From sequence record NC_025445.1: 40,981 bases of DNA; one strand, written 5' to 3'. The position numbers and the translations under genes were made by a program. Below, one piece after another: positions 1,468 through 16,924 of the stretch; position 1 is the stretch's first letter, and each line of letters starts with the position of its first letter. Origin of the DNA: Escherichia phage J8-65. Below the pieces are notes generated by a model. That model did not search any database. It was not told where the DNA came from and saw only the letters and a list, made by a program, of their open reading frames with translations.

Positions 1468-1857
1468 ATGTACCGTATCTATGCAAGCGCATATCGTCAG
1501 GGCAACGCTGAGTCAGTCAATCTGGCACTGCACTGCAAGGCACTGCGAACGGTGCAGGACATGTTCGGAGTGATTCCGGTCACACTGACAGGCAAGTTCG
1601 ACAATGCGTATGAGTTACGCATGGTCTTCCCTGTCGATGGAATCTACGAAATCCGGCAGGCTGTTAAGCTGTTTTGTAAAGCCTTCGAACAGGACTGCAT
1701 CATGGTAGTGACCAAAGACGACGATGCAATCTTCATGGACTCACCGTATCCGGGCAAGCCTGCTGGCAAGCTGGTCAGCAAGACTAACGAGGAAATGGAA
1801 GCCGGGCAGTTCACTGCTTGGACTTACGACGGTGAGCAATTTTGGGTAGTGGAGTAA
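1468..1857 (+). CDS. hypothetical early protein (129 aa)
   Basis: ATG start, GGAG upstream, first ORF after promoter cluster. Confidence 0.6.
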   Translation: MYRIYASAYRQGNAESVNLALHCKALRTVQDMFGVIPVTLTGKFDNAYELRMVFPVDGIYEIRQAVKLFCKAFEQDCIMVVTKDDDAIFMDSPYPGKPAGKLVSKTNEEMEAGQFTAWTYDGEQFWVVE

Positions 1858-5903: not shown

Positions 5904-6337
5904 AGCCTAAGTATAAAGTCGGGGATGAAATCGTAGGCGACGAAGGCACTGGCACCCGGTCGGGTAAGCTGAGTATCATCGCTTGGGTTAACCCTGACCG
6001 CCGAGCGTGGGAGCGTAGCGGGGAGACTCGTTACATCGTGAGCTGGATTGGTGAGCGCCTGAATGCGCAGCCGGATATCAGCCACTACAAATCTGACTGG
6101 CTGGAAGAGAACACCAGTCTGGTCAGCACGCCAGCCGAGAAGCGCGGTCGGTTCATGTGCTTGGTCGAAGGCAGCAACGCGCCGCCGAAGGTTGAGCACA
6201 TCACTGAGCGCGAGGCGCGTGAAGAAGCTGAACGTCTGGCAGAGCGGTGCGGAGGTACTGTCCGTGTGCTGCAAGTTGTGGCCAGCGTGAAGATGAAGAA
6301 GAAGATTCTGTACACACCGGACTGGGATAACGAATGA
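5897..6337 (+). CDS. hypothetical protein (146 aa)
   Basis: ATG start overlapping upstream stop. Confidence 0.55.
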   Translation: MVKPKYKVGDEIVGDEGTGTRSGKLSIIAWVNPDRRAWERSGETRYIVSWIGERLNAQPDISHYKSDWLEENTSLVSTPAEKRGRFMCLVEGSNAPPKVEHITEREAREEAERLAERCGGTVRVLQVVASVKMKKKILYTPDWDNE

Positions 6338-7047
6338 GAAAGTCAGTGAGCAATGATGAGTGGCCGGAGCTGGCGAGGCGTCTGCCGATAGGACAAAAGC
6401 GTCGGACGTTTCACGCTTGCTCACGCTCATTCAGTAAGACCAACTTCGAGTATGGCCGGAACAGCGAAGGCGTGTGGTGCAAGTGCCATCGCTGCGGCCA
6501 TGCTGATTTCAAACCCCTCAACCATGCACCGTATGTACCGCCAGCCAAAGAGCAGGTGAAGATACCGGGCGACGTTGTTCCGCTTATCGAAGTGATAGCG
6601 AAGCAGCCCGGACTGCTACTGCCAGCGTTGGAGAAGTATGAGCTGCTGCCACACCTGAGCGTGCTGACTGCCAGCCCAACGTACGGGCGTATCTACTTGC
6701 CGGACAACTCGGCAAGCTACTGTGGTCTGGACTACACCGGGCGGCAGTTCATTCCGTGGCGCTCGCCACACAACCATCTAATGGCAGTGACAGTAAGTAA
6801 TCACGACGACGATGAGTTCAAAGGGATATGGATTTACGACAGCGCATCAGCATATCTCGACCACGTTCGTCGTGGTGACAGAGTGGATGGCAATGCAGCG
6901 TTCGTAGCCAATGCCGACGATGCCACCGTACGCGCTCTGGTTAGCGTTGTGCTGGCCAATCGTTATGAAGTGATATCATTGCAGCACCGACAGAGCGACA
7001 GGCTCAGGCGTGAGCTGAGAGTGTGTGGCAGGGTGCGAACAATATAG
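6334..7047 (+). CDS. putative primase-like zinc-ribbon protein (237 aa)
   Basis: C-x16-C-x-C-x2-C cluster (CSRSF...WCKCHRCGH); sits directly upstream of helicase as in T7-like primase-helicase modules; no clear TOPRIM seen. Confidence 0.45.
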   Translation: MRKSVSNDEWPELARRLPIGQKRRTFHACSRSFSKTNFEYGRNSEGVWCKCHRCGHADFKPLNHAPYVPPAKEQVKIPGDVVPLIEVIAKQPGLLLPALEKYELLPHLSVLTASPTYGRIYLPDNSASYCGLDYTGRQFIPWRSPHNHLMAVTVSNHDDDEFKGIWIYDSASAYLDHVRRGDRVDGNAAFVANADDATVRALVSVVLANRYEVISLQHRQSDRLRRELRVCGRVRTI

Positions 7048-7056
7048 GAGGGTAAT

Positions 7057-8322
7057 GTGTTAGACAAACTGTTGCTCTCTGTCATGCGTGAGCGAGGGAA
7101 GTATAACTCCCTGCGCCATGCCATTCCAGAGGACACTATGAGTCAGACCACAGGCTACATGCTGCGTGCGTATGGCTCATACTTCGAGGCGTTCCCGGAT
7201 TCAGATTACGTGGATATGGAAACGCTAGGCACACACGTCCGGCTCAAGACTGGGAGTACACCGGAGCAGATGGCTGCGTTCGAATCGCTATGCCAGCAGC
7301 TCAAGGAATACCAGCCGACGAAGCAGCAGACCGAAGGCATCATCGACCAGTTAGTCGAGCTGGATACAGCAGGCAAGGTTAACCTCCTTGCGCAGAGGTA
7401 CGACAATGGCGATGAGATTGATTTCATCTATGAGCTGGGCCGCCTTGCAGAAGGCGCACGCCGCAGTCGAGGGCAGTCATCTGTCACTGATTACGTTGAC
7501 GATGATGTGGTTGATATTATCAATCGGACGGATGATGACCACGGTTTCAAGTTCGGTCTCATGTGTTTGCAGGACAGCGTTAGGGTACTTCTCCCCGGTG
7601 ACTCCGTTGCAATCGGCGCTCGACCCGACAGTGGCAAGACTTCCTTCATCGCGTTTAACCTTACGAGAATGGCGGCGACAGCAGCGAAGCTGTATCCGGG
7701 CCGACCAATCCTATGGTTCAACAACGAAGGGCAGGGCATCAACATCATCCCGCGCATCTACCAAGCGGCGCTCGGCTGTACGCTCCCGGAGTTAAAGGCA
7801 CTGGGTGCAGACAGGAAGAAGTTGCATGAGAAGTACGCGAAGGCGTTGAATGCTCCGGCCAACATCATACGTGTGAAGGACATGCACGGTGCAACGTTGG
7901 CCAAAGCGGAGCAGGTGATTGAAGCAATGAATCCCTGCATCGTGGTGTGGGATATGCTGGCAAACTTCAAGTTGTCTGTGGCTGACGCTAACAGCAACAA
8001 GGCCAGCCAAGTCGAGCAGCTCTGGCAGGAGGTACGTGAGCTGGCGGTACGTCATGACTTCGTATCGCTGGCTACGGTTCAGGTATCCGCAGACGGTGCC
8101 GACGATATGTTCCCCGCGCTAGACGCACTCAAGGATTCCAAGACTGGTATCCAAGGTGCGACCGATGTGATTGTCATGCTGGGTTCCGTTGACGACCCGG
8201 CGCTGGCAGCGAGGCGCGGCGTGAGCACTCCGAAGAACAAGCGGCAGATAGCTGGGCGTCCGTCCAACGTCCGTTCGCAGGTTCACTTCTATGCTGATAA
8301 ATGTCAATTCGAGGATATGTGA
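7057..8322 (+). CDS. DnaB-like replicative DNA helicase (421 aa)
   Basis: GTG start 5 nt after AGGAGG; Walker A GARPDSGKTS; position matches T7 gp4 helicase domain. Confidence 0.75.
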   Translation: MLDKLLLSVMRERGKYNSLRHAIPEDTMSQTTGYMLRAYGSYFEAFPDSDYVDMETLGTHVRLKTGSTPEQMAAFESLCQQLKEYQPTKQQTEGIIDQLVELDTAGKVNLLAQRYDNGDEIDFIYELGRLAEGARRSRGQSSVTDYVDDDVVDIINRTDDDHGFKFGLMCLQDSVRVLLPGDSVAIGARPDSGKTSFIAFNLTRMAATAAKLYPGRPILWFNNEGQGINIIPRIYQAALGCTLPELKALGADRKKLHEKYAKALNAPANIIRVKDMHGATLAKAEQVIEAMNPCIVVWDMLANFKLSVADANSNKASQVEQLWQEVRELAVRHDFVSLATVQVSADGADDMFPALDALKDSKTGIQGATDVIVMLGSVDDPALAARRGVSTPKNKRQIAGRPSNVRSQVHFYADKCQFEDM

Positions 8323-8675
8323 TGAGCAAGATAAAGGTAGGCGACCGCGTTCGTAACTGTGACACCAAGAGCGTACACTTCGGCGCGACTGGTACTGTGG
8401 TGGATATCGACAGCAAGTGCATCAGCATCCGGCGCGACGATGGCTCGCGTGGTTCCGGTATCTATGGTTCGTGGACTGCGCGGCCAGAGTGCTGGGAGCT
8501 ACTGGATGAAGTAGCCAAGGTGCCGGAGCCGACGAGCACTGACGAAGACTGGAGCTATGCAGAAGCTGAGCGTCTGTATCAGGCGGCGTGTGATGCCATG
8601 TCGCGGTACAATCAGTACATCGAGCGTAAGCCTACGACTAACTACCTGTCCGGCTCAGTGCCGAGCAAGTGGTGA
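8322..8675 (+). CDS. hypothetical protein (118 aa)
   Basis: ATG 8322 with GAGGA RBS, 1-nt overlap with helicase stop. Confidence 0.55.
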   Translation: MSKIKVGDRVRNCDTKSVHFGATGTVVDIDSKCISIRRDDGSRGSGIYGSWTARPECWELLDEVAKVPEPTSTDEDWSYAEAERLYQAACDAMSRYNQYIERKPTTNYLSGSVPSKW

Positions 8676-8839
8676 AAGGGCGCAGCTATCGTCGTTGCTC
8701 TTGCGGCGGCAGCCTGCTAACTGAGCAGGTCAAGGGCAAGGCCACTGGCAAAGTGCTGGTGATTTATGAGTGTGAAAAGTGTGGAGCGAAACAGTATGGA
8801 AGAACGCACGTATCGAGCGGCACCCTTAAACCAACGTGA
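8672..8839 (+). CDS. putative zinc-ribbon protein (55 aa, GTG start)
   Basis: GTGA overlap with upstream stop; CSC-x20-CEKC motif; overlaps next ORF in another frame. Confidence 0.3.
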   Translation: MKGRSYRRCSCGGSLLTEQVKGKATGKVLVIYECEKCGAKQYGRTHVSSGTLKPT

Positions 8840-8987
8840 GCAGGAACTCATCCGGGCACAGTACCGGAAGGGCGACGCATTCCGTGGTGCCGAGGCATTG
8901 GGTGAACGCTTCAACGTAGCACCCGAAGATATCTACGCCGTGGTTAACTTCACCTATACCAAGGGGAGAAAGAAAAGTGATAAGTGA
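8796..8987 (+). CDS. small HTH-like protein (63 aa)
   Basis: ATG 8796; LNQREQELIRAQYRKGDAFRGAEALGERFNVAPEDIYAVV resembles a sigma region 4 / LuxR-type HTH. Confidence 0.4.
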   Translation: MEERTYRAAPLNQREQELIRAQYRKGDAFRGAEALGERFNVAPEDIYAVVNFTYTKGRKKSDK

Positions 8988-9660
8988 TAACGACTTCAAG
9001 CGCGTGTGGGCAGAGGAAATCTGTCGGCTGTTGCAGGGCGAAGAGTTGAGCTTCGTTGTTGCAGGGGGTGGGGCACGAGACACTGCGCTTGGCGTAGACC
9101 CGAAGGACTTTGATATCGTGGTGTTCGGTTGGGGCGGTGACATGCAGCGCGTTGCTCGCCGACTGGACTGGCTGGATTCCCGGCTGGAAGACTGGGCTGC
9201 GGAGCATGAGCTAGACTACGAGTACATGCCGAGTTACCACGATGCAGAAGAGGGCGGCGACTTTGGCTCCCGACTGTACGGCGTGTACAAAGTTGGCCCG
9301 GTCGATATCATCATCAGCAAGTGCGGCTGCTGGTCACAGGTGCTGAACGAGTTCGACTTCAACCTGAACCAGTTCTACTTCCCGTCCAGTATCCCGCGCT
9401 ACTCCGGCCAGTACAGCCGTGACCCCGGCGACTTCATGGCGTACCCGTATGAGCCGAAGCTGACTGCCGAGGATGTGCAGTGGTATCCGGCGCTGGCCAG
9501 TCTGGTTGAAAGCTATGACGACCTTCTGACCCTGCGTGTGTGCCGACCGGATGCGAGCATGAGTCGTCTGGCTTACATGTTAGAGAAGCACGAGAAGCTG
9601 CTGCCCCGCATTCAGGAGTACGTGAATCGTATGCCTGACCATTTGGGTGGCACAGCATAG
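8977..9660 (+). CDS. class II CCA-adding-enzyme-like nucleotidyltransferase, short form (227 aa)
   Basis: GTG start after GGGGAG; VVAGGGARDTALGVDPKDFDIVVFG matches the GGxxRD...DxD head-domain signature of CCA-adding/poly(A) polymerase family; downstream DFNLN motif. Confidence 0.6.
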   Translation: MISDNDFKRVWAEEICRLLQGEELSFVVAGGGARDTALGVDPKDFDIVVFGWGGDMQRVARRLDWLDSRLEDWAAEHELDYEYMPSYHDAEEGGDFGSRLYGVYKVGPVDIIISKCGCWSQVLNEFDFNLNQFYFPSSIPRYSGQYSRDPGDFMAYPYEPKLTAEDVQWYPALASLVESYDDLLTLRVCRPDASMSRLAYMLEKHEKLLPRIQEYVNRMPDHLGGTA

Positions 9661-9670
9661 CGGAGGGGTA

Positions 9671-12136
9671 ATGGCAATTCGAGCACAGGTCATTGACGTT
9701 GAGACCGAGAACCATGACTGGTACGGTGAGCTGGCATCTCCACGCTGCCCGGACAACTACGTCGTGATGCAAGGCCAGCGCGATTGTGTGCTGACGAAGA
9801 ATGGCTGGGAGTTCTACGAGCGCGAAGAGTATCGGTACACGTCAAGGGAAGACTGGTTGCAGAACAAGAGTCTGCACCTGCACCCCGACACGAACATACT
9901 GGTGGCACACAACGCGCCGTACGAATTGAGCTGGTGGTTCCTGCATTACGGTGACGAGTTCACTGCCTTCCTCAAACGGGGTGGCCGTGTATTCTGTACC
10001 GCATATGCAGAGTACCTGCTGACTCACCAGCAATCGCAGTACCCATCGTTAAACGAAACCGCGCCGAAGTACGGCGGTACTCACAAGGTGGATGCAGTCA
10101 AGGCAATGTGGGAGTCAGGTTATCTGACCAGCCAGATTGACCCGGAGCTGCTAAGTGAGTACCTGTCCGGGCCGAGCGGCGATATCGAGAACACCACGAA
10201 GGTGTTCGTCGGGCAGTGGGCTGAGCTTACCAAACAAGGTATGCTACCGATGGCACTGACCCGTATGGAAGGGATGCTGATGTGGGCGTACATGATGCAC
10301 AGCGGCTTGCACGTTGACCGTGAAGTGGCTGAGCGGAATCGTCAGGAGTTACGCACGCAGATTGACGAGCTGACACAGAAGCTGCTGGATTATCTACCAG
10401 CGGATATGCCGGAGGAAGCACGTAACCAGTTCAAGTTCACGTCGGCATACCACATGTCAGCGTTCGTCTTCGGCGGCGTCATGAAGTATACGACCCGCGT
10501 ACCACGTACTGATGCAGACGGCAATCCAATCTACGTGAAGGTGGATGCGCCGCTGTTCAAGCGTGGCAAGGAGAAGTGGTTGAAGCACAAGGAAGAGTGC
10601 GAGTTCGATGAAGAGTCCGGGCTATGGTATGACCCGGTTGAGAAGGTACACCAAACTCTGTACACGGCAGGCAAGTTCAAGGGCGAGCCTAAGTTCGAGA
10701 AGCTGGCGACAGATGAGGTGGACACCAAGTGGGGCGATGTGCTGTACCCGCTGCCCGGTCTGCTCCGCGACAAGGACAGACGAGCGAAGGAGATAGCAGA
10801 CAACCTCGTATGGGAAGACCCGAAGCGTCCGGGTGAATATCTCCGGCGCACTGGTGACTGGGTGGGCAAGCGTAAGCTGGCTGATGGTACACCTGTGTTC
10901 AGTACGGCGGGTGAGGTGCTGGAGATTCTGGCTGCCCGTAAGATTCCCGGTGTGGTTGAAATCGCTGAACGTGCCAAGTCACAGAAAGACCTCGGCACCT
11001 ACTACTTGAGTGAGACCTTCGACGAAGAGGGTAACGTCACTGGCCAGTCAGGTATGATGCAGTTCATCCAGCCGGATGGGATTGTACATCACACCATTAA
11101 CATGACTGCGACGGAGACCACTCGCTTATCATCGGCACGACCGAATAGCCAGAACCTTCCGCGTAAAGGTACGAGTAAAGTTAAGCAGATGTTCACCTCC
11201 CGGTTTGGGCCGGGCGGCAGGATAGTCGAGGCTGACTACTCGGCGCTGGAAGTAGTAGGGCTGGCGGGATTCAGTAAGGATAAGAATCTCGTTAAGGCTC
11301 TGATGGATAACATCGACATGCACTGTATGCGTCTGGCCGCGCAGCTTGAGGAAGACTACGAAGAGGTGAAGCGTAAGGCGAAGGATGAATCCCATCCTGA
11401 CCACGAACGCTACAGCCAGATGCGTACCGATATCAAGCCGAAGGCATTCTCATATCAGTACGGTGCGACAGCGCGAGGCATCGCGTACTCCACTGGCTGT
11501 ACTGAGGAAGAGGCACAGGCATTCATCGACAACGAGAAGAGTCTGTTTCCAGAAGTGGAAGCATGGTTCGACAAGGTTATCTTCCCGGCAGTGGAGAAGT
11601 CCGGTCAGAGCAATGTGTTCAAGGAGCAGGATGAGAATGGACGGTGGTGCGTCTACCGCCGTGGCTACTTCAAATCTCCGGGCGGCACCTGCTATTCATT
11701 CCGTCAGTATGAGAAATGGAACAGCGCAGCTCGTGGGTATTTGATGGAATACAAGCCAACCCAAATGCGTAACTATCCGATTCAAGGTGAGACCGCGTTT
11801 TGGGTGCAGGGCATTGGTGGTCTGTTGTTCCGCTGGCTGCTGAGCAATGACTTCTTTGGTGGGCGTGTGGTTCCCATCAACCAAGTGCATGACGCATTCT
11901 ATTTCGACGTTGCGCCTGACTGTCCACACGAGTTCTTCGTAGGACTCAAGGCAATCATGGAGAGCATCCCGGAATACTATAACCACGTATGGCCTGAGTA
12001 TGACCTGACGGTGCCGTTCCCGGCAGAGGTGGAAGCAGGCCCAAGCATGTACGAGAAGCACCACGTAGAGACGACAGCCGAAGAAGTGCTGGAGTTCAAA
12101 CGTAACTTTCTGAAATCTAAGGGTATCGAGATATGA
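9671..12136 (+). CDS. family A DNA polymerase, T7 gp5-like (821 aa)
   Basis: ATG 9671 after GGAGGGG; exo motif VIDVETE; motif A DYSALEVVG; motif B RTDIKPKAFSYQYGAT; motif C VHDAF. Confidence 0.9.
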   Translation: MAIRAQVIDVETENHDWYGELASPRCPDNYVVMQGQRDCVLTKNGWEFYEREEYRYTSREDWLQNKSLHLHPDTNILVAHNAPYELSWWFLHYGDEFTAFLKRGGRVFCTAYAEYLLTHQQSQYPSLNETAPKYGGTHKVDAVKAMWESGYLTSQIDPELLSEYLSGPSGDIENTTKVFVGQWAELTKQGMLPMALTRMEGMLMWAYMMHSGLHVDREVAERNRQELRTQIDELTQKLLDYLPADMPEEARNQFKFTSAYHMSAFVFGGVMKYTTRVPRTDADGNPIYVKVDAPLFKRGKEKWLKHKEECEFDEESGLWYDPVEKVHQTLYTAGKFKGEPKFEKLATDEVDTKWGDVLYPLPGLLRDKDRRAKEIADNLVWEDPKRPGEYLRRTGDWVGKRKLADGTPVFSTAGEVLEILAARKIPGVVEIAERAKSQKDLGTYYLSETFDEEGNVTGQSGMMQFIQPDGIVHHTINMTATETTRLSSARPNSQNLPRKGTSKVKQMFTSRFGPGGRIVEADYSALEVVGLAGFSKDKNLVKALMDNIDMHCMRLAAQLEEDYEEVKRKAKDESHPDHERYSQMRTDIKPKAFSYQYGATARGIAYSTGCTEEEAQAFIDNEKSLFPEVEAWFDKVIFPAVEKSGQSNVFKEQDENGRWCVYRRGYFKSPGGTCYSFRQYEKWNSAARGYLMEYKPTQMRNYPIQGETAFWVQGIGGLLFRWLLSNDFFGGRVVPINQVHDAFYFDVAPDCPHEFFVGLKAIMESIPEYYNHVWPEYDLTVPFPAEVEAGPSMYEKHHVETTAEEVLEFKRNFLKSKGIEI

Positions 12137-15633: not shown

Positions 15634-15857
15634 TATACGACGATGACGTAATCCAACTCACTGCCAATGGCTGGGCTGTCGAATGGACAGCCCGGACACA
15701 GGTAGAGGTAGTTGAAGACACTGTAGTCATACGTCAGGGCGACGACGAAGTTACCCTGCCGTGGTGCTACATCCCTGACATGCTGAAAGCACTGGAGAAA
15801 GCGCAAGATGAACTTAAAAGATACCGTTGTGGTAGACCTCGACGGAACGTTGGCTGA
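15630..15857 (+). CDS. hypothetical protein (75 aa)
   Basis: ATGA overlap with upstream stop. Confidence 0.5.
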   Translation: MIYDDDVIQLTANGWAVEWTARTQVEVVEDTVVIRQGDDEVTLPWCYIPDMLKALEKAQDELKRYRCGRPRRNVG

Positions 15858-16335
15858 TGGCCGCTGGCGTCTGCACCTGCTGCCGCCGCCTGACCGCCGC
15901 CATCTCGACGAAGCGTGGGCCGAGTTCAACTTGGCAGGTGCAGATGACCCCGCGTTTCAGGATACGATTGACATTGTGAACGCTCTGGCCCTCACGTATC
16001 GCATTGTCATTCTGACCGGACGCGGGGCCGTGGCCCGTGAAGTAACCGAGCAATGGCTCGACGATAATGGGATGGTGTACGACAAGCTCATCATGCGTGA
16101 GATTGGCGACTGCCGTAAGGACACTGAGATGAAGCGTGCTGCGCTGGAGGATATTGGTATCGACAATATCGTCTGCGCCTTTGACGACCTGCCGCACATC
16201 GTGGACTTCATGCGCAGCCTCGGCATCACGGTTTATGAAGTGACTCGGTACGAGGACAATCACGAGTATGTTCACGCAAATGCTAAGTATGATGGCGCTA
16301 ACGATACGGTCATTGGAGGTAAGGCGAATGGGTAA
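15808..16335 (+). CDS. HAD-superfamily phosphatase (175 aa)
   Basis: N-terminal VVVDLDGTL (HAD motif I DxDGT). Confidence 0.65.
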   Translation: MNLKDTVVVDLDGTLADGRWRLHLLPPPDRRHLDEAWAEFNLAGADDPAFQDTIDIVNALALTYRIVILTGRGAVAREVTEQWLDDNGMVYDKLIMREIGDCRKDTEMKRAALEDIGIDNIVCAFDDLPHIVDFMRSLGITVYEVTRYEDNHEYVHANAKYDGANDTVIGGKANG

Positions 16336-16924
16336 GAAAGGTCAGAAGTTCTGTCTGGATATCAACCGCGAGTATCACGACAAGCTGCTCAATGAGCTGC
16401 GAGATAACGGTGCCATCCTGACATATGACGAGCCGTATGATGTACCCAACGACAGCAGGGATTATTACACCTGCGTCTACAACGGTAAGAAGATACTGCT
16501 GATACTGGAACCTTACGAGGTACAGGAAGTCGAGACGGCGTTCATCCCGGTTGACCCGTACGACCCTGCGCATGATGTTGAGGTGGCCGTGGCCAATAGC
16601 TCCGGGCCGGGCGGTATGAAGTATGATGGTGGCAAGCCACGCATGGCTCTGCTGTTCGATGGGTGCCCGAACGCACTGGCCGCTGTCGGCGAGGTGCTGA
16701 CGTTTGGCGCTCAGAAGTACGCTGCCCACTCGTGGCAGACTGTGCCGGAAGGTCAGGAGCGCTACAAGTCTGCGCTCATACGCCACCTACTGGCCGTGGG
16801 TAATGGTGAGGAACTGGATAGTGAATCTGGTCTGCACCATCTGGCCCATGCAGCGTGCAATGCGCTGTTCATTCTGGAACTGGAACTGAGGAAACGTAAT
16901 GAGTCGTTATCAAAAAGTGCTTGA
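16328..16924 (+). CDS. hypothetical protein, possible MazG-like all-alpha NTP pyrophosphohydrolase domain (198 aa)
   Basis: GGAGG RBS; C-terminal VGEVL...EELDSESGLHHLAHAACNALFILELE resembles MazG EExxE/D pattern; weak. Confidence 0.5.
   Translation: MGKKGQKFCLDINREYHDKLLNELRDNGAILTYDEPYDVPNDSRDYYTCVYNGKKILLILEPYEVQEVETAFIPVDPYDPAHDVEVAVANSSGPGGMKYDGGKPRMALLFDGCPNALAAVGEVLTFGAQKYAAHSWQTVPEGQERYKSALIRHLLAVGNGEELDSESGLHHLAHAACNALFILELELRKRNESLSKSA

Follow-up and report, generated by a model that had tools for sequence, protein, structure and literature searches.

The window analysed here, 40,981 nucleotides (nt) of Escherichia phage J8-65 (sequence record NC_025445.1), carries at positions 8977-9660 a gene for a small protein that is very probably an active nucleotidyltransferase (NTase) of class II descent, its activity being predicted from sequence. 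The protein belongs to an already known family of short phage NTases, in which it is a member that has so far been called 'hypothetical'. As a function, we tentatively propose that it is a competent stand-alone catalytic head that extends RNA 3' ends with relaxed specificity and serves host takeover or counter-defence. A first-pass annotation had described a short CCA-adding-enzyme-like NTase at this place. We found the open reading frame (ORF) on the plus strand, with its 227 amino acids (aa) exactly as quoted there; the description as a CCA-like NTase was correct, but the family had already been annotated.

8977..9660 (stop codon included), plus strand: NTase gene, 227 aa, identified from the ORF and its translation, PHROG 1614, dN/dS and an AlphaFold2 model

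The ratio of nonsynonymous to synonymous substitution rates (dN/dS), calculated pairwise against three Bonnellvirus orthologues, was 0.06-0.19, and 8977-9660 is therefore a real gene under purifying selection.

Searches with the single J8-65 sequence in Pfam, NCBIfam and PDB revealed only sub-threshold matches confined to motif A. The Pfam PolyA_pol model (PF01743), which the first-pass annotation had named as a check, did match, but with 15.0 bits (E 0.032) and over residues 28-57 only. The gathering threshold of this model is 23 bits, so that the J8-65 protein is not a PF01743 member by the curated threshold. The TIGR01942 (pcnB) model matched with an E-value of 5e-4, and a poly(A) polymerase was found in PDB with an E-value of 0.33. 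A few family members, such as P0031 at 24.7 bits, do pass PF01743, so that the family sits at the edge of this model.

Since the single-sequence searches remained below threshold, a family profile of 86 relatives was used. When this profile was compared with solved structures, the top 14 matches were class II CCA enzymes or poly(A) polymerases, with E-values of 5e-9 to 1e-4. Using hhalign, we compared the family with an alignment of five class II head-neck sequences (E. coli Cca and PcnB from NC_000913.3, and three from PDB alignments), and the match reached 96.8% with an E-value of 2.6e-10 over 153 columns. The corresponding value was 0.2% for a reversed-sequence decoy and 87% (E 3.9e-6) for the profile of the J8-65 subfamily alone. 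The family profile also reached a genuine PolyA_pol protein (P0128) with an E-value of 1e-9; this metagenomic protein has 1455 aa and contains four tandem units of PolyA_pol and RNA-binding domains. As for the structure prediction that had also been suggested, AlphaFold2 gave a confident NTase model with a predicted local distance difference test (pLDDT) score of 90.5, and the top Foldseek matches of this model were all class II CCA enzymes. The model has the pol-beta NTase fold, with class II enzymes as the nearest structural neighbours and a complete carboxylate triad. Because the profile and hhalign matches, the low decoy score and the structural matches agree, we consider the resemblance to class II enzymes to be beyond chance. 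The outcome that the first-pass annotation had named as speaking against its claim, assignment to another NTase family with the catalytic Asp residues unaligned, did not occur in the profile and structure comparisons.

Motifs A-E, which lie in the N-terminal catalytic core, define class II enzymes. The elements that we could place in the J8-65 protein are the following.

9058..9123, plus strand: motif A, residues 28-49, VAGGGARDTALGVDPKDFDIVV, from invariance in 86 of 86 sequences and gapless alignment to E. coli CCA
9301..9315, plus strand: β-strand VDIII, residues 109-113, containing D110, the presumed third catalytic carboxylate
9352..9375, plus strand: degenerate motif B FDFNLNQF, residues 126-133, from hhalign against RRDLTINA
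9382..9480, plus strand: subfamily insertion, residues 136-168, PSSIPRYSGQYSRDPGDFMAYPYEPKLTAEDV, lacking in most family members
9544..9588, plus strand: C-terminal motif R190-x-D192-x-S194-x-x-R197-x-x-x-M201-x-x-K204, at the start of the terminal helix 195-218

Motif A is the best preserved of these elements. The N-terminal region had been described as nearly collinear with the head of CCA enzymes, and residues 28-51 (VAGGGARDTALGVDPKDFDIVVFG) indeed align without gaps with residues 5-28 of E. coli CCA, 12 of the 24 positions being identical. In particular, GGGARD...KDFD (residues 30-46) matches GGAVRD...KDRD of E. coli CCA as well as poly(A) polymerases and CCA enzymes in PDB, and the motif A pattern of class II CCA enzymes (GGxVRD followed by DxD) was found. 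G30, G31, R34, D35, D44 and D46 are invariant in all 86 family members, and D44 and D46 are the two metal-binding carboxylates of the motif. D110 is conserved in 84 of the 86 and lies on a predicted strand (residues 109-114) that forms the second strand of a hairpin. Judged by this hairpin pattern and not by a confident alignment, D110 would take the place of the Glu in the 'EVTTFR' strand of class II enzymes. The metal-binding triad (D44, D46 and D110) and the GGxxRD nucleotide-binding loop thus appear complete and intact.

The motifs that confer specificity in class II enzymes gave a different picture. The DFNLN motif mentioned in the first-pass annotation (D127-N131) was placed by hhalign on motif B of E. 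coli CCA, RRDLTINA, with F126 on the second Arg, D127 on the Asp and N131 on the Asn. Across the family this motif reads xFDFN(I/L)NQ, in which the class II Asp and Asn persist but neither Arg does, and F126, D127, N129 and N131 are each conserved in at least 96% of members. The RRD of motif B, which serves ribose recognition in class II enzymes (PMC2910056), was found in 0 of 86 family members, and the J8-65 protein reads NEFDFNLNQ. In place of motif C, matching IIDPxxG, most members have [YF]-x-G, and the J8-65 protein has W-Y-P. The insertion that follows motif B is largely a subfamily feature: residues 141-165 fall in alignment columns occupied by only 6-45 of the 86 sequences, whereas FPSSIP, G144, R148, Y158 and P160 are invariant in the J8-65 subfamily of 14 sequences. 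The model is less confident here, with block means of 72-81.

The C-terminal motif is the sole strongly conserved C-terminal element of the family. R197 is present in 86 of 86 members, and R190, D192, M201 and K204 each occur in more than half of the sequences (53-70%). In the hhalign run with -M 50, the terminal helix was matched to the class II helix that carries motif D; S194 then pairs with the Asp of EDxxR, and R197 pairs with its Arg. This motif serves as the amino-acid template for CTP and ATP, and its Asp and Arg are irreplaceable for CCA addition (PMC11784652). The EDxxR motif itself is absent from the J8-65 NTase, and chance occurrences of the string in 3 of the 86 relatives are not aligned with it; only its Arg may survive, as R197. 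An alternative alignment of low confidence (-M first, low mact) paired the terminal helix with motif E. That run keeps the insertion of the query as match columns, and the alignment shrinks to 32 columns; we did not rely on the motif E reading, as -M 50 favours the motif D helix. No recognisable motif E was found in the J8-65 NTase, and a Pfam scan detected no PolyA_pol_RNAbd, body, tail or other domain. The protein ends 102 residues past the start of motif B (family median 70), and because only about 100 residues follow motif B, the rest of the neck, the body and the tail are excluded.

The comparison with class II enzymes of known structure or function (E. coli Cca and PcnB; PDB entries 3aql, 4wby, 3h37 and 1miv) is therefore one of a part with a whole. 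These enzymes contain RRD, a full EDxxR, motif E, PolyA_pol_RNAbd and body and tail domains, none of which is found in the J8-65 NTase, and they are about twice as long; the statement that the protein is half the size of a CCA enzyme holds at 227 aa versus the 412 aa of E. coli CCA. The interpretation given in the first-pass annotation is accordingly supported in part. The class II head is there, with its catalytic Asp residues aligned and invariant; RRD, EDxxR, motif E and the body and tail domains are not.

The J8-65 protein matched PHROG 1614, 'nucleotidyltransferase', with an E-value of 7.4e-45, residues 9-225 covering profile positions 20-207 of 268, and its full-length membership was confirmed. 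The hhalign value between the J8-65 subfamily and the family was 100%. In a representative library the family comprises 383 clusters at 50% identity, and the members retrieved mostly have about 150-230 aa. Translated searches (tblastn) revealed homologues in 136 phage records, mostly of Autographiviridae infecting Pseudomonas, Escherichia, Klebsiella, Yersinia, Pantoea and Pectobacterium, under labels that vary from nucleotidyltransferase, tRNA nucleotidyltransferase and poly(A) polymerase to hypothetical. The structural neighbours in BFVD are likewise short NTases of many Autographiviridae. The J8-65 copy, recovered with 100% protein identity, and most Bonnellvirus copies are still annotated as 'hypothetical protein'. 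Searches of plasmids and of E. coli chromosomes and prophages revealed no homologue.

Several members of this family have been noticed before. The NTase of the Pantoea phage LIMEzero resembles the J8-65 NTase closely (template modelling (TM) scores of 0.76/0.86 between the models, 37% identity). Gp22 of Klebsiella phage fHe-Kpn01 belongs to the same family (hhalign 99.6%, E 2e-24; BLASTP 32% identity over 123 residues, E 1e-11). The 'tRNA nucleotidyltransferases' of Pectobacterium, Pseudomonas, Yersinia and Acinetobacter Autographiviridae share the motifs and the polymerase neighbourhood. The branch of Bonnellvirus and LIMEzero differs from the typical family of about 185 aa by its length of 200-230 aa and the FPSSIP insertion after motif B. 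Evseev et al. described putative CCA-nucleotidyltransferases in a tree rooted on LIMEzero and found the gene in 37 of 46 Pectobacterium Autographiviridae and in only 60 of more than 500 others, with no direct analogue in the type phage T7 (PMC7693777). In the study of Spruit et al., the 182-aa fHe-Kpn01 Gp22 proved toxic to E. coli, and HHpred showed its likeness to CCA enzymes (PMC7291057). The family is discussed as 'putative tRNA nucleotidyltransferase' (PMC7693777, PMC7291057, PMC9145550). The gene is an accessory one, patchily distributed and host-linked. Judged from the motifs, the family is probably misnamed 'tRNA/CCA nucleotidyltransferase' if this widely used label is taken strictly, because it lacks the elements on which specificity for the ribose, the base and the tRNA depends.

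The position of the gene is similar in distant phages. The order helicase ... NTase ... polymerase, or polymerase followed by NTase, recurs: the NTase gene lies upstream of the DNA polymerase gene in J8-65, Lidtsur and locus L005, and immediately downstream in fHe-Kpn01 and loci L008 and L009, so that J8-65 and Drulisvirus differ in this respect. A few members occur in other phage-like contexts, off the usual Autographiviridae layout. One, of 273 aa, lies at 6001-6822 of a 91-kb contig (L006) near acyl-carrier-protein genes, and another, of 159 aa, adjoins a resolvase gene (L007, 1527-2006). A conserved small partner gene, such as one for an antitoxin or specificity subunit, was sought, and none was common to the Bonnellvirus, Drulisvirus-like and other contexts.

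Single-domain proteins of this kind have precedents outside the family. NP_344798.1 (PDB 2la3), a stand-alone protein with the head domain of CCA enzymes, and the MenT-type toxins (PDB 8an4) are small single-domain NTase folds like the J8-65 NTase. The MenT toxins elongate tRNA at its 3' end (PMC10435456). The J8-65 protein has neither the sequence or profile membership of MenT or AbiEii toxins nor a cognate antitoxin neighbour.

Based on these comparisons, the protein would be a catalytically competent stand-alone class II head followed by one helix equivalent to the first neck helix. With a bound nucleoside triphosphate and Mg2+, it would carry out untemplated transfer of the nucleoside monophosphate (NMP) to a nucleic-acid 3'-OH. 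RNA would be the most likely acceptor, since 3'-end extension of RNA is what all its close structural relatives do. As RRD, the ED of EDxxR and all tRNA-binding domains are missing, a relaxed nucleotide and substrate specificity would be expected, that is, tailing or capping of RNA ends and not the ordered synthesis of C-C-A. The role would lie in host takeover or counter-defence in particular hosts and not in core replication, because the distribution is patchy and a family member expressed alone is toxic in E. coli.

Several points weigh against this proposal. Both the nucleotide used and the acceptor, which could be RNA, DNA, a protein or a small molecule, are purely our inference, and without RRD and the ED of motif D the enzyme could have a substrate of quite another kind. 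ANT(2'')-Ia and MenT1 were among the weaker structural matches, and other NTase-fold enzymes of about 180 aa act on antibiotics or proteins. The toxic homologue Gp22 is only 32% identical and is without the 30-aa subfamily insertion, and toxicity upon over-expression specifies no mechanism. Polymerase adjacency and the lost ribose motif are equally compatible with action on DNA ends. In the literature we found no biochemical study of any member; beyond the Gp22 toxicity screen, there are only statements of homology.

Among the alternatives, the one that survives best, although we regard it as unlikely, is an anti-defence enzyme similar to Gad2, which would nucleotidylate a defence protein or phage DNA ends and so blind Gabija or other end-sensing immunity. 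Gad2 is an anti-Gabija protein of about 400 aa from SPbeta-like Bacillus phages, a predicted NTase that is toxic (10.1101/2023.05.01.538930); its mechanism was described as unknown as of 2026 (PMC12904381). Precomputed weak matches to Pfam PF26128 (Gad2), which all retrieved Gad2 homologues carry, are present on several members of the mini-NTase family, including proteins 61-70% identical to the J8-65 NTase. Our Gad2 set consisted of an experimentally verified homologue (supplement of 10.1101/2023.05.01.538930) and 38 relatives. Profile-profile comparison of the family with this set gave 88% and an E-value of 3e-6 over 138 columns, corresponding to Gad2 residues 17-163, versus 0.1% for the decoy. 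The alignment spans IAGG...DxD, FDF and the terminal SxxRxxK[MY]xxK helix (Gad2 residues about 149-160), so that the mini-NTases are covered over their entire length by the N-terminal 165 or so residues of Gad2. Gad2 and class II enzymes showed no detectable relation by hhalign (10.7%), and a hidden Markov model (HMM) of the Gad2 N-domain scored family members at up to 22.5 bits and class II controls at no more than 7.5 bits. Because the class II comparison gives only 10.7% and lower HMM scores, the mini-NTase family is the nearest detectable relative of the Gad2 NTase domain.

Further points in favour of a Gad2-like enzyme are that both kinds of protein are phage-encoded and toxic on expression (in the mini-NTases, for one member, Gp22), that the gene has an accessory, host-linked distribution, and that it occupies the helicase-polymerase interval, where T7 holds gene 4.5. 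The product of T7 gene 4.5 is described as an inhibitor of a toxin-antitoxin system. This role is also given in a gene-map legend (PMC7693777).

On the other hand, the profile of the J8-65 subfamily alone revealed no similarity to Gad2 (0.7%), a local Pfam scan of the J8-65 NTase gave no PF26128 match, and at 227 aa, with no sequence match, the protein is not a member of the Gad2 family with its architecture of about 400 aa. In Gad2, no RD follows GG, a Gln stands invariantly where the mini-NTases have D110, and FDF is followed by TVCMG, not by NxNQ; the protein also has a large extra C-terminal region and comes from phages of Gram-positive hosts. The literature links no family member experimentally to any defence system. 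PADLOC gave no match to the J8-65 NTase, as expected for a phage protein. As the J8-65 subfamily alone shows no similarity, the Gad2 link is weak and transitive, a lead and not a classification.

A broader version of this idea has a rather low probability in our view: the mini-NTases and the Gad2 N-domain would form one counter-defence clade derived from a class II head, blinding immunity that senses ends or targets tRNA ends, with Gabija as an example. In such a clade, discrimination of ribose and base would have been lost, and nucleotides would be added to nucleic-acid ends or to a defence protein. If this were true, the first T7-like, Gram-negative representative of the clade would be the J8-65 protein, whose biochemistry would then show how Gad2 works, that is, its mechanism; if the Gad2 link itself holds, an enzyme of 180-230 aa would be a tractable model for that mechanism.

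No better placed is the repair of tRNA, which the first-pass annotation had raised: a miniaturised enzyme that restores damaged 3'-CCA termini in infected cells, for instance to counter defences directed at these termini, is improbable, and the motif anatomy lends this claim no support. It is true that CCA- or A-adding enzymes come out nearest in both homology and structure, that the literature uses the label putative tRNA nucleotidyltransferase, that R197 may match the templating Arg of EDxxR, and that defences aimed at tRNA 3' ends exist (PMC12851939, PMC11245113). Additionally, the phage has a stand-alone PNKP-type 3'-phosphatase that could heal 3'-phosphate ends before extension. Yet four defining features fail, namely RRD, the ED of EDxxR, motif E and the body and tail that hold the tRNA; the host has its own cca; and over-expression of a homologue was toxic, not neutral. 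Phage tRNAs in need of CCA were ruled out, as the window contains no tRNA genes. A functional pair of the NTase and the phosphatase was also rejected: PNKP-type phosphatases were found in 1256 phage records, far beyond the range of the NTase and most of them without it, which leaves no specific partner.

The repair of CCA ends and a Gad2-like activity overlap in part with the relaxed-specificity extension of RNA ends that we prefer. The remaining alternatives concern other acceptors. A DNA terminal transferase, which would extend phage or host DNA at its 3' ends with (deoxy)nucleotides independently of a template, in replication, end protection or host-DNA processing, has in our estimate only a small chance of being correct. 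Autographiviridae genomes are linear with exposed ends, and this fits, as do the lost ribose-recognising RRD and the consistent position of the gene beside the DNA polymerase gene, upstream or downstream, in distantly related phages. However, no enzyme of class II lineage is known to act on DNA, and the gene is absent from T7 and most Autographiviridae and so is dispensable for replication, while the adjacency may merely reflect a common middle-gene transcription unit. We give similarly little weight to NMPylation or AMPylation of a host protein or small molecule in place of a nucleic acid; the small enzymes and weaker structural matches named above would suit it, and the RNA-extending activity of the close structural relatives would not. 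Finally, a catalytically dead remnant acting by binding only, as a decoy or structural protein, could be suspected from the loss of several class II motifs, but is very hard to credit: the metal-binding carboxylates and the GGxxRD loop stay invariant in relatives that share only 21-33% identity with the J8-65 NTase, and purifying selection is strong, a pattern expected of an enzyme.

The annotation itself is ordinary. As a widespread, host-linked accessory gene of podophages of the therapeutic type, with one toxic member and the closest detectable relationship to Gad2, the family represented in J8-65 is a reasonable and cheap candidate for an enzymatic factor of host takeover or counter-defence.

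The window DNA is 97% identical to that of phage smaasur, which is classified as Bonnellvirus J865 in the Autographiviridae. The first-pass annotation had placed the gene in the replication block, and this was borne out by a primase gene and a DnaB-like helicase gene before it and a DNA polymerase gene after it.

6334-7047: primase gene, upstream of the NTase gene
7057-8322: DnaB-like helicase gene, upstream of the NTase gene
8964..8969, plus strand: Shine-Dalgarno-like GGGGAG, read from the sequence, 7 nt 5' of the GTG start
about 9672-12136, plus strand: DNA polymerase gene, downstream of the NTase gene

The start codon of the NTase gene is GTG at 8977. The start position is conserved across the relatives of the J8-65 NTase, and the same position is ATG in phages glasur and megetsur. 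It lies 11 nt inside an upstream ORF for a 63-aa protein, and because the NTase start is within this ORF, translation of the two may be coupled. The mechanical ORF list starts the polymerase at GTG 9647 (9647-12136), overlapping the NTase gene. ATG 9672 is the likelier start, because GGAGGGG precedes it and it agrees with the annotated start in glasur, 11 nt past the NTase stop.

Three small ORFs lie between the helicase and NTase genes. The two just 5' of the NTase gene (8669-8839 and 8796-8987, plus strand) overlap by about 44 nt in different frames. One encodes a 56-aa zinc-ribbon protein of the CxC...CxxC type with a weak match to Pfam RNHCP, and the other encodes the 63-aa protein, which matched phrog_31596 with an E-value of 1e-41. 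According to tblastn, the pair is also present in all of Lidtsur, glasur, megetsur and smaasur, yet each of the four GenBank/RefSeq records examined annotates only one of the two. The third ORF, directly after the helicase gene (8301-8675, plus strand), encodes a 124-aa protein with a weakly SH3-like N-terminus (PF18129, sub-threshold); a counterpart with 28% identity occupies the same position in the Drulisvirus-like locus L008 (2459-2773).

We also noted three genes elsewhere in the window. The stand-alone PNKP-type 3'-phosphatase of the haloacid dehalogenase (HAD) type is encoded at 15808-16335 (plus strand; 175 aa; PF25109, 56.9 bits) and is without a kinase domain. Proteins of this type are often annotated as 'polynucleotide kinase', and they also occur beside the NTase-bearing Drulisvirus-like loci L008 and L009. 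An ORF of 218 aa at 16268-16924 (plus strand) overlaps the phosphatase gene by 68 nt, and its true start may be further downstream; the C-terminal half of its product matches the N-terminal domain of dATP/dGTP diphosphohydrolase (PF18909, E 6e-33). The early gene at 1468-1857 (plus strand) matches the S-adenosylmethionine (SAM) lyase family (PF23780, E 5e-26) and carries the PHROG label SAM-dependent methyltransferase; its product is probably, by this match, a SAM-degrading anti-restriction enzyme of the T3 type.

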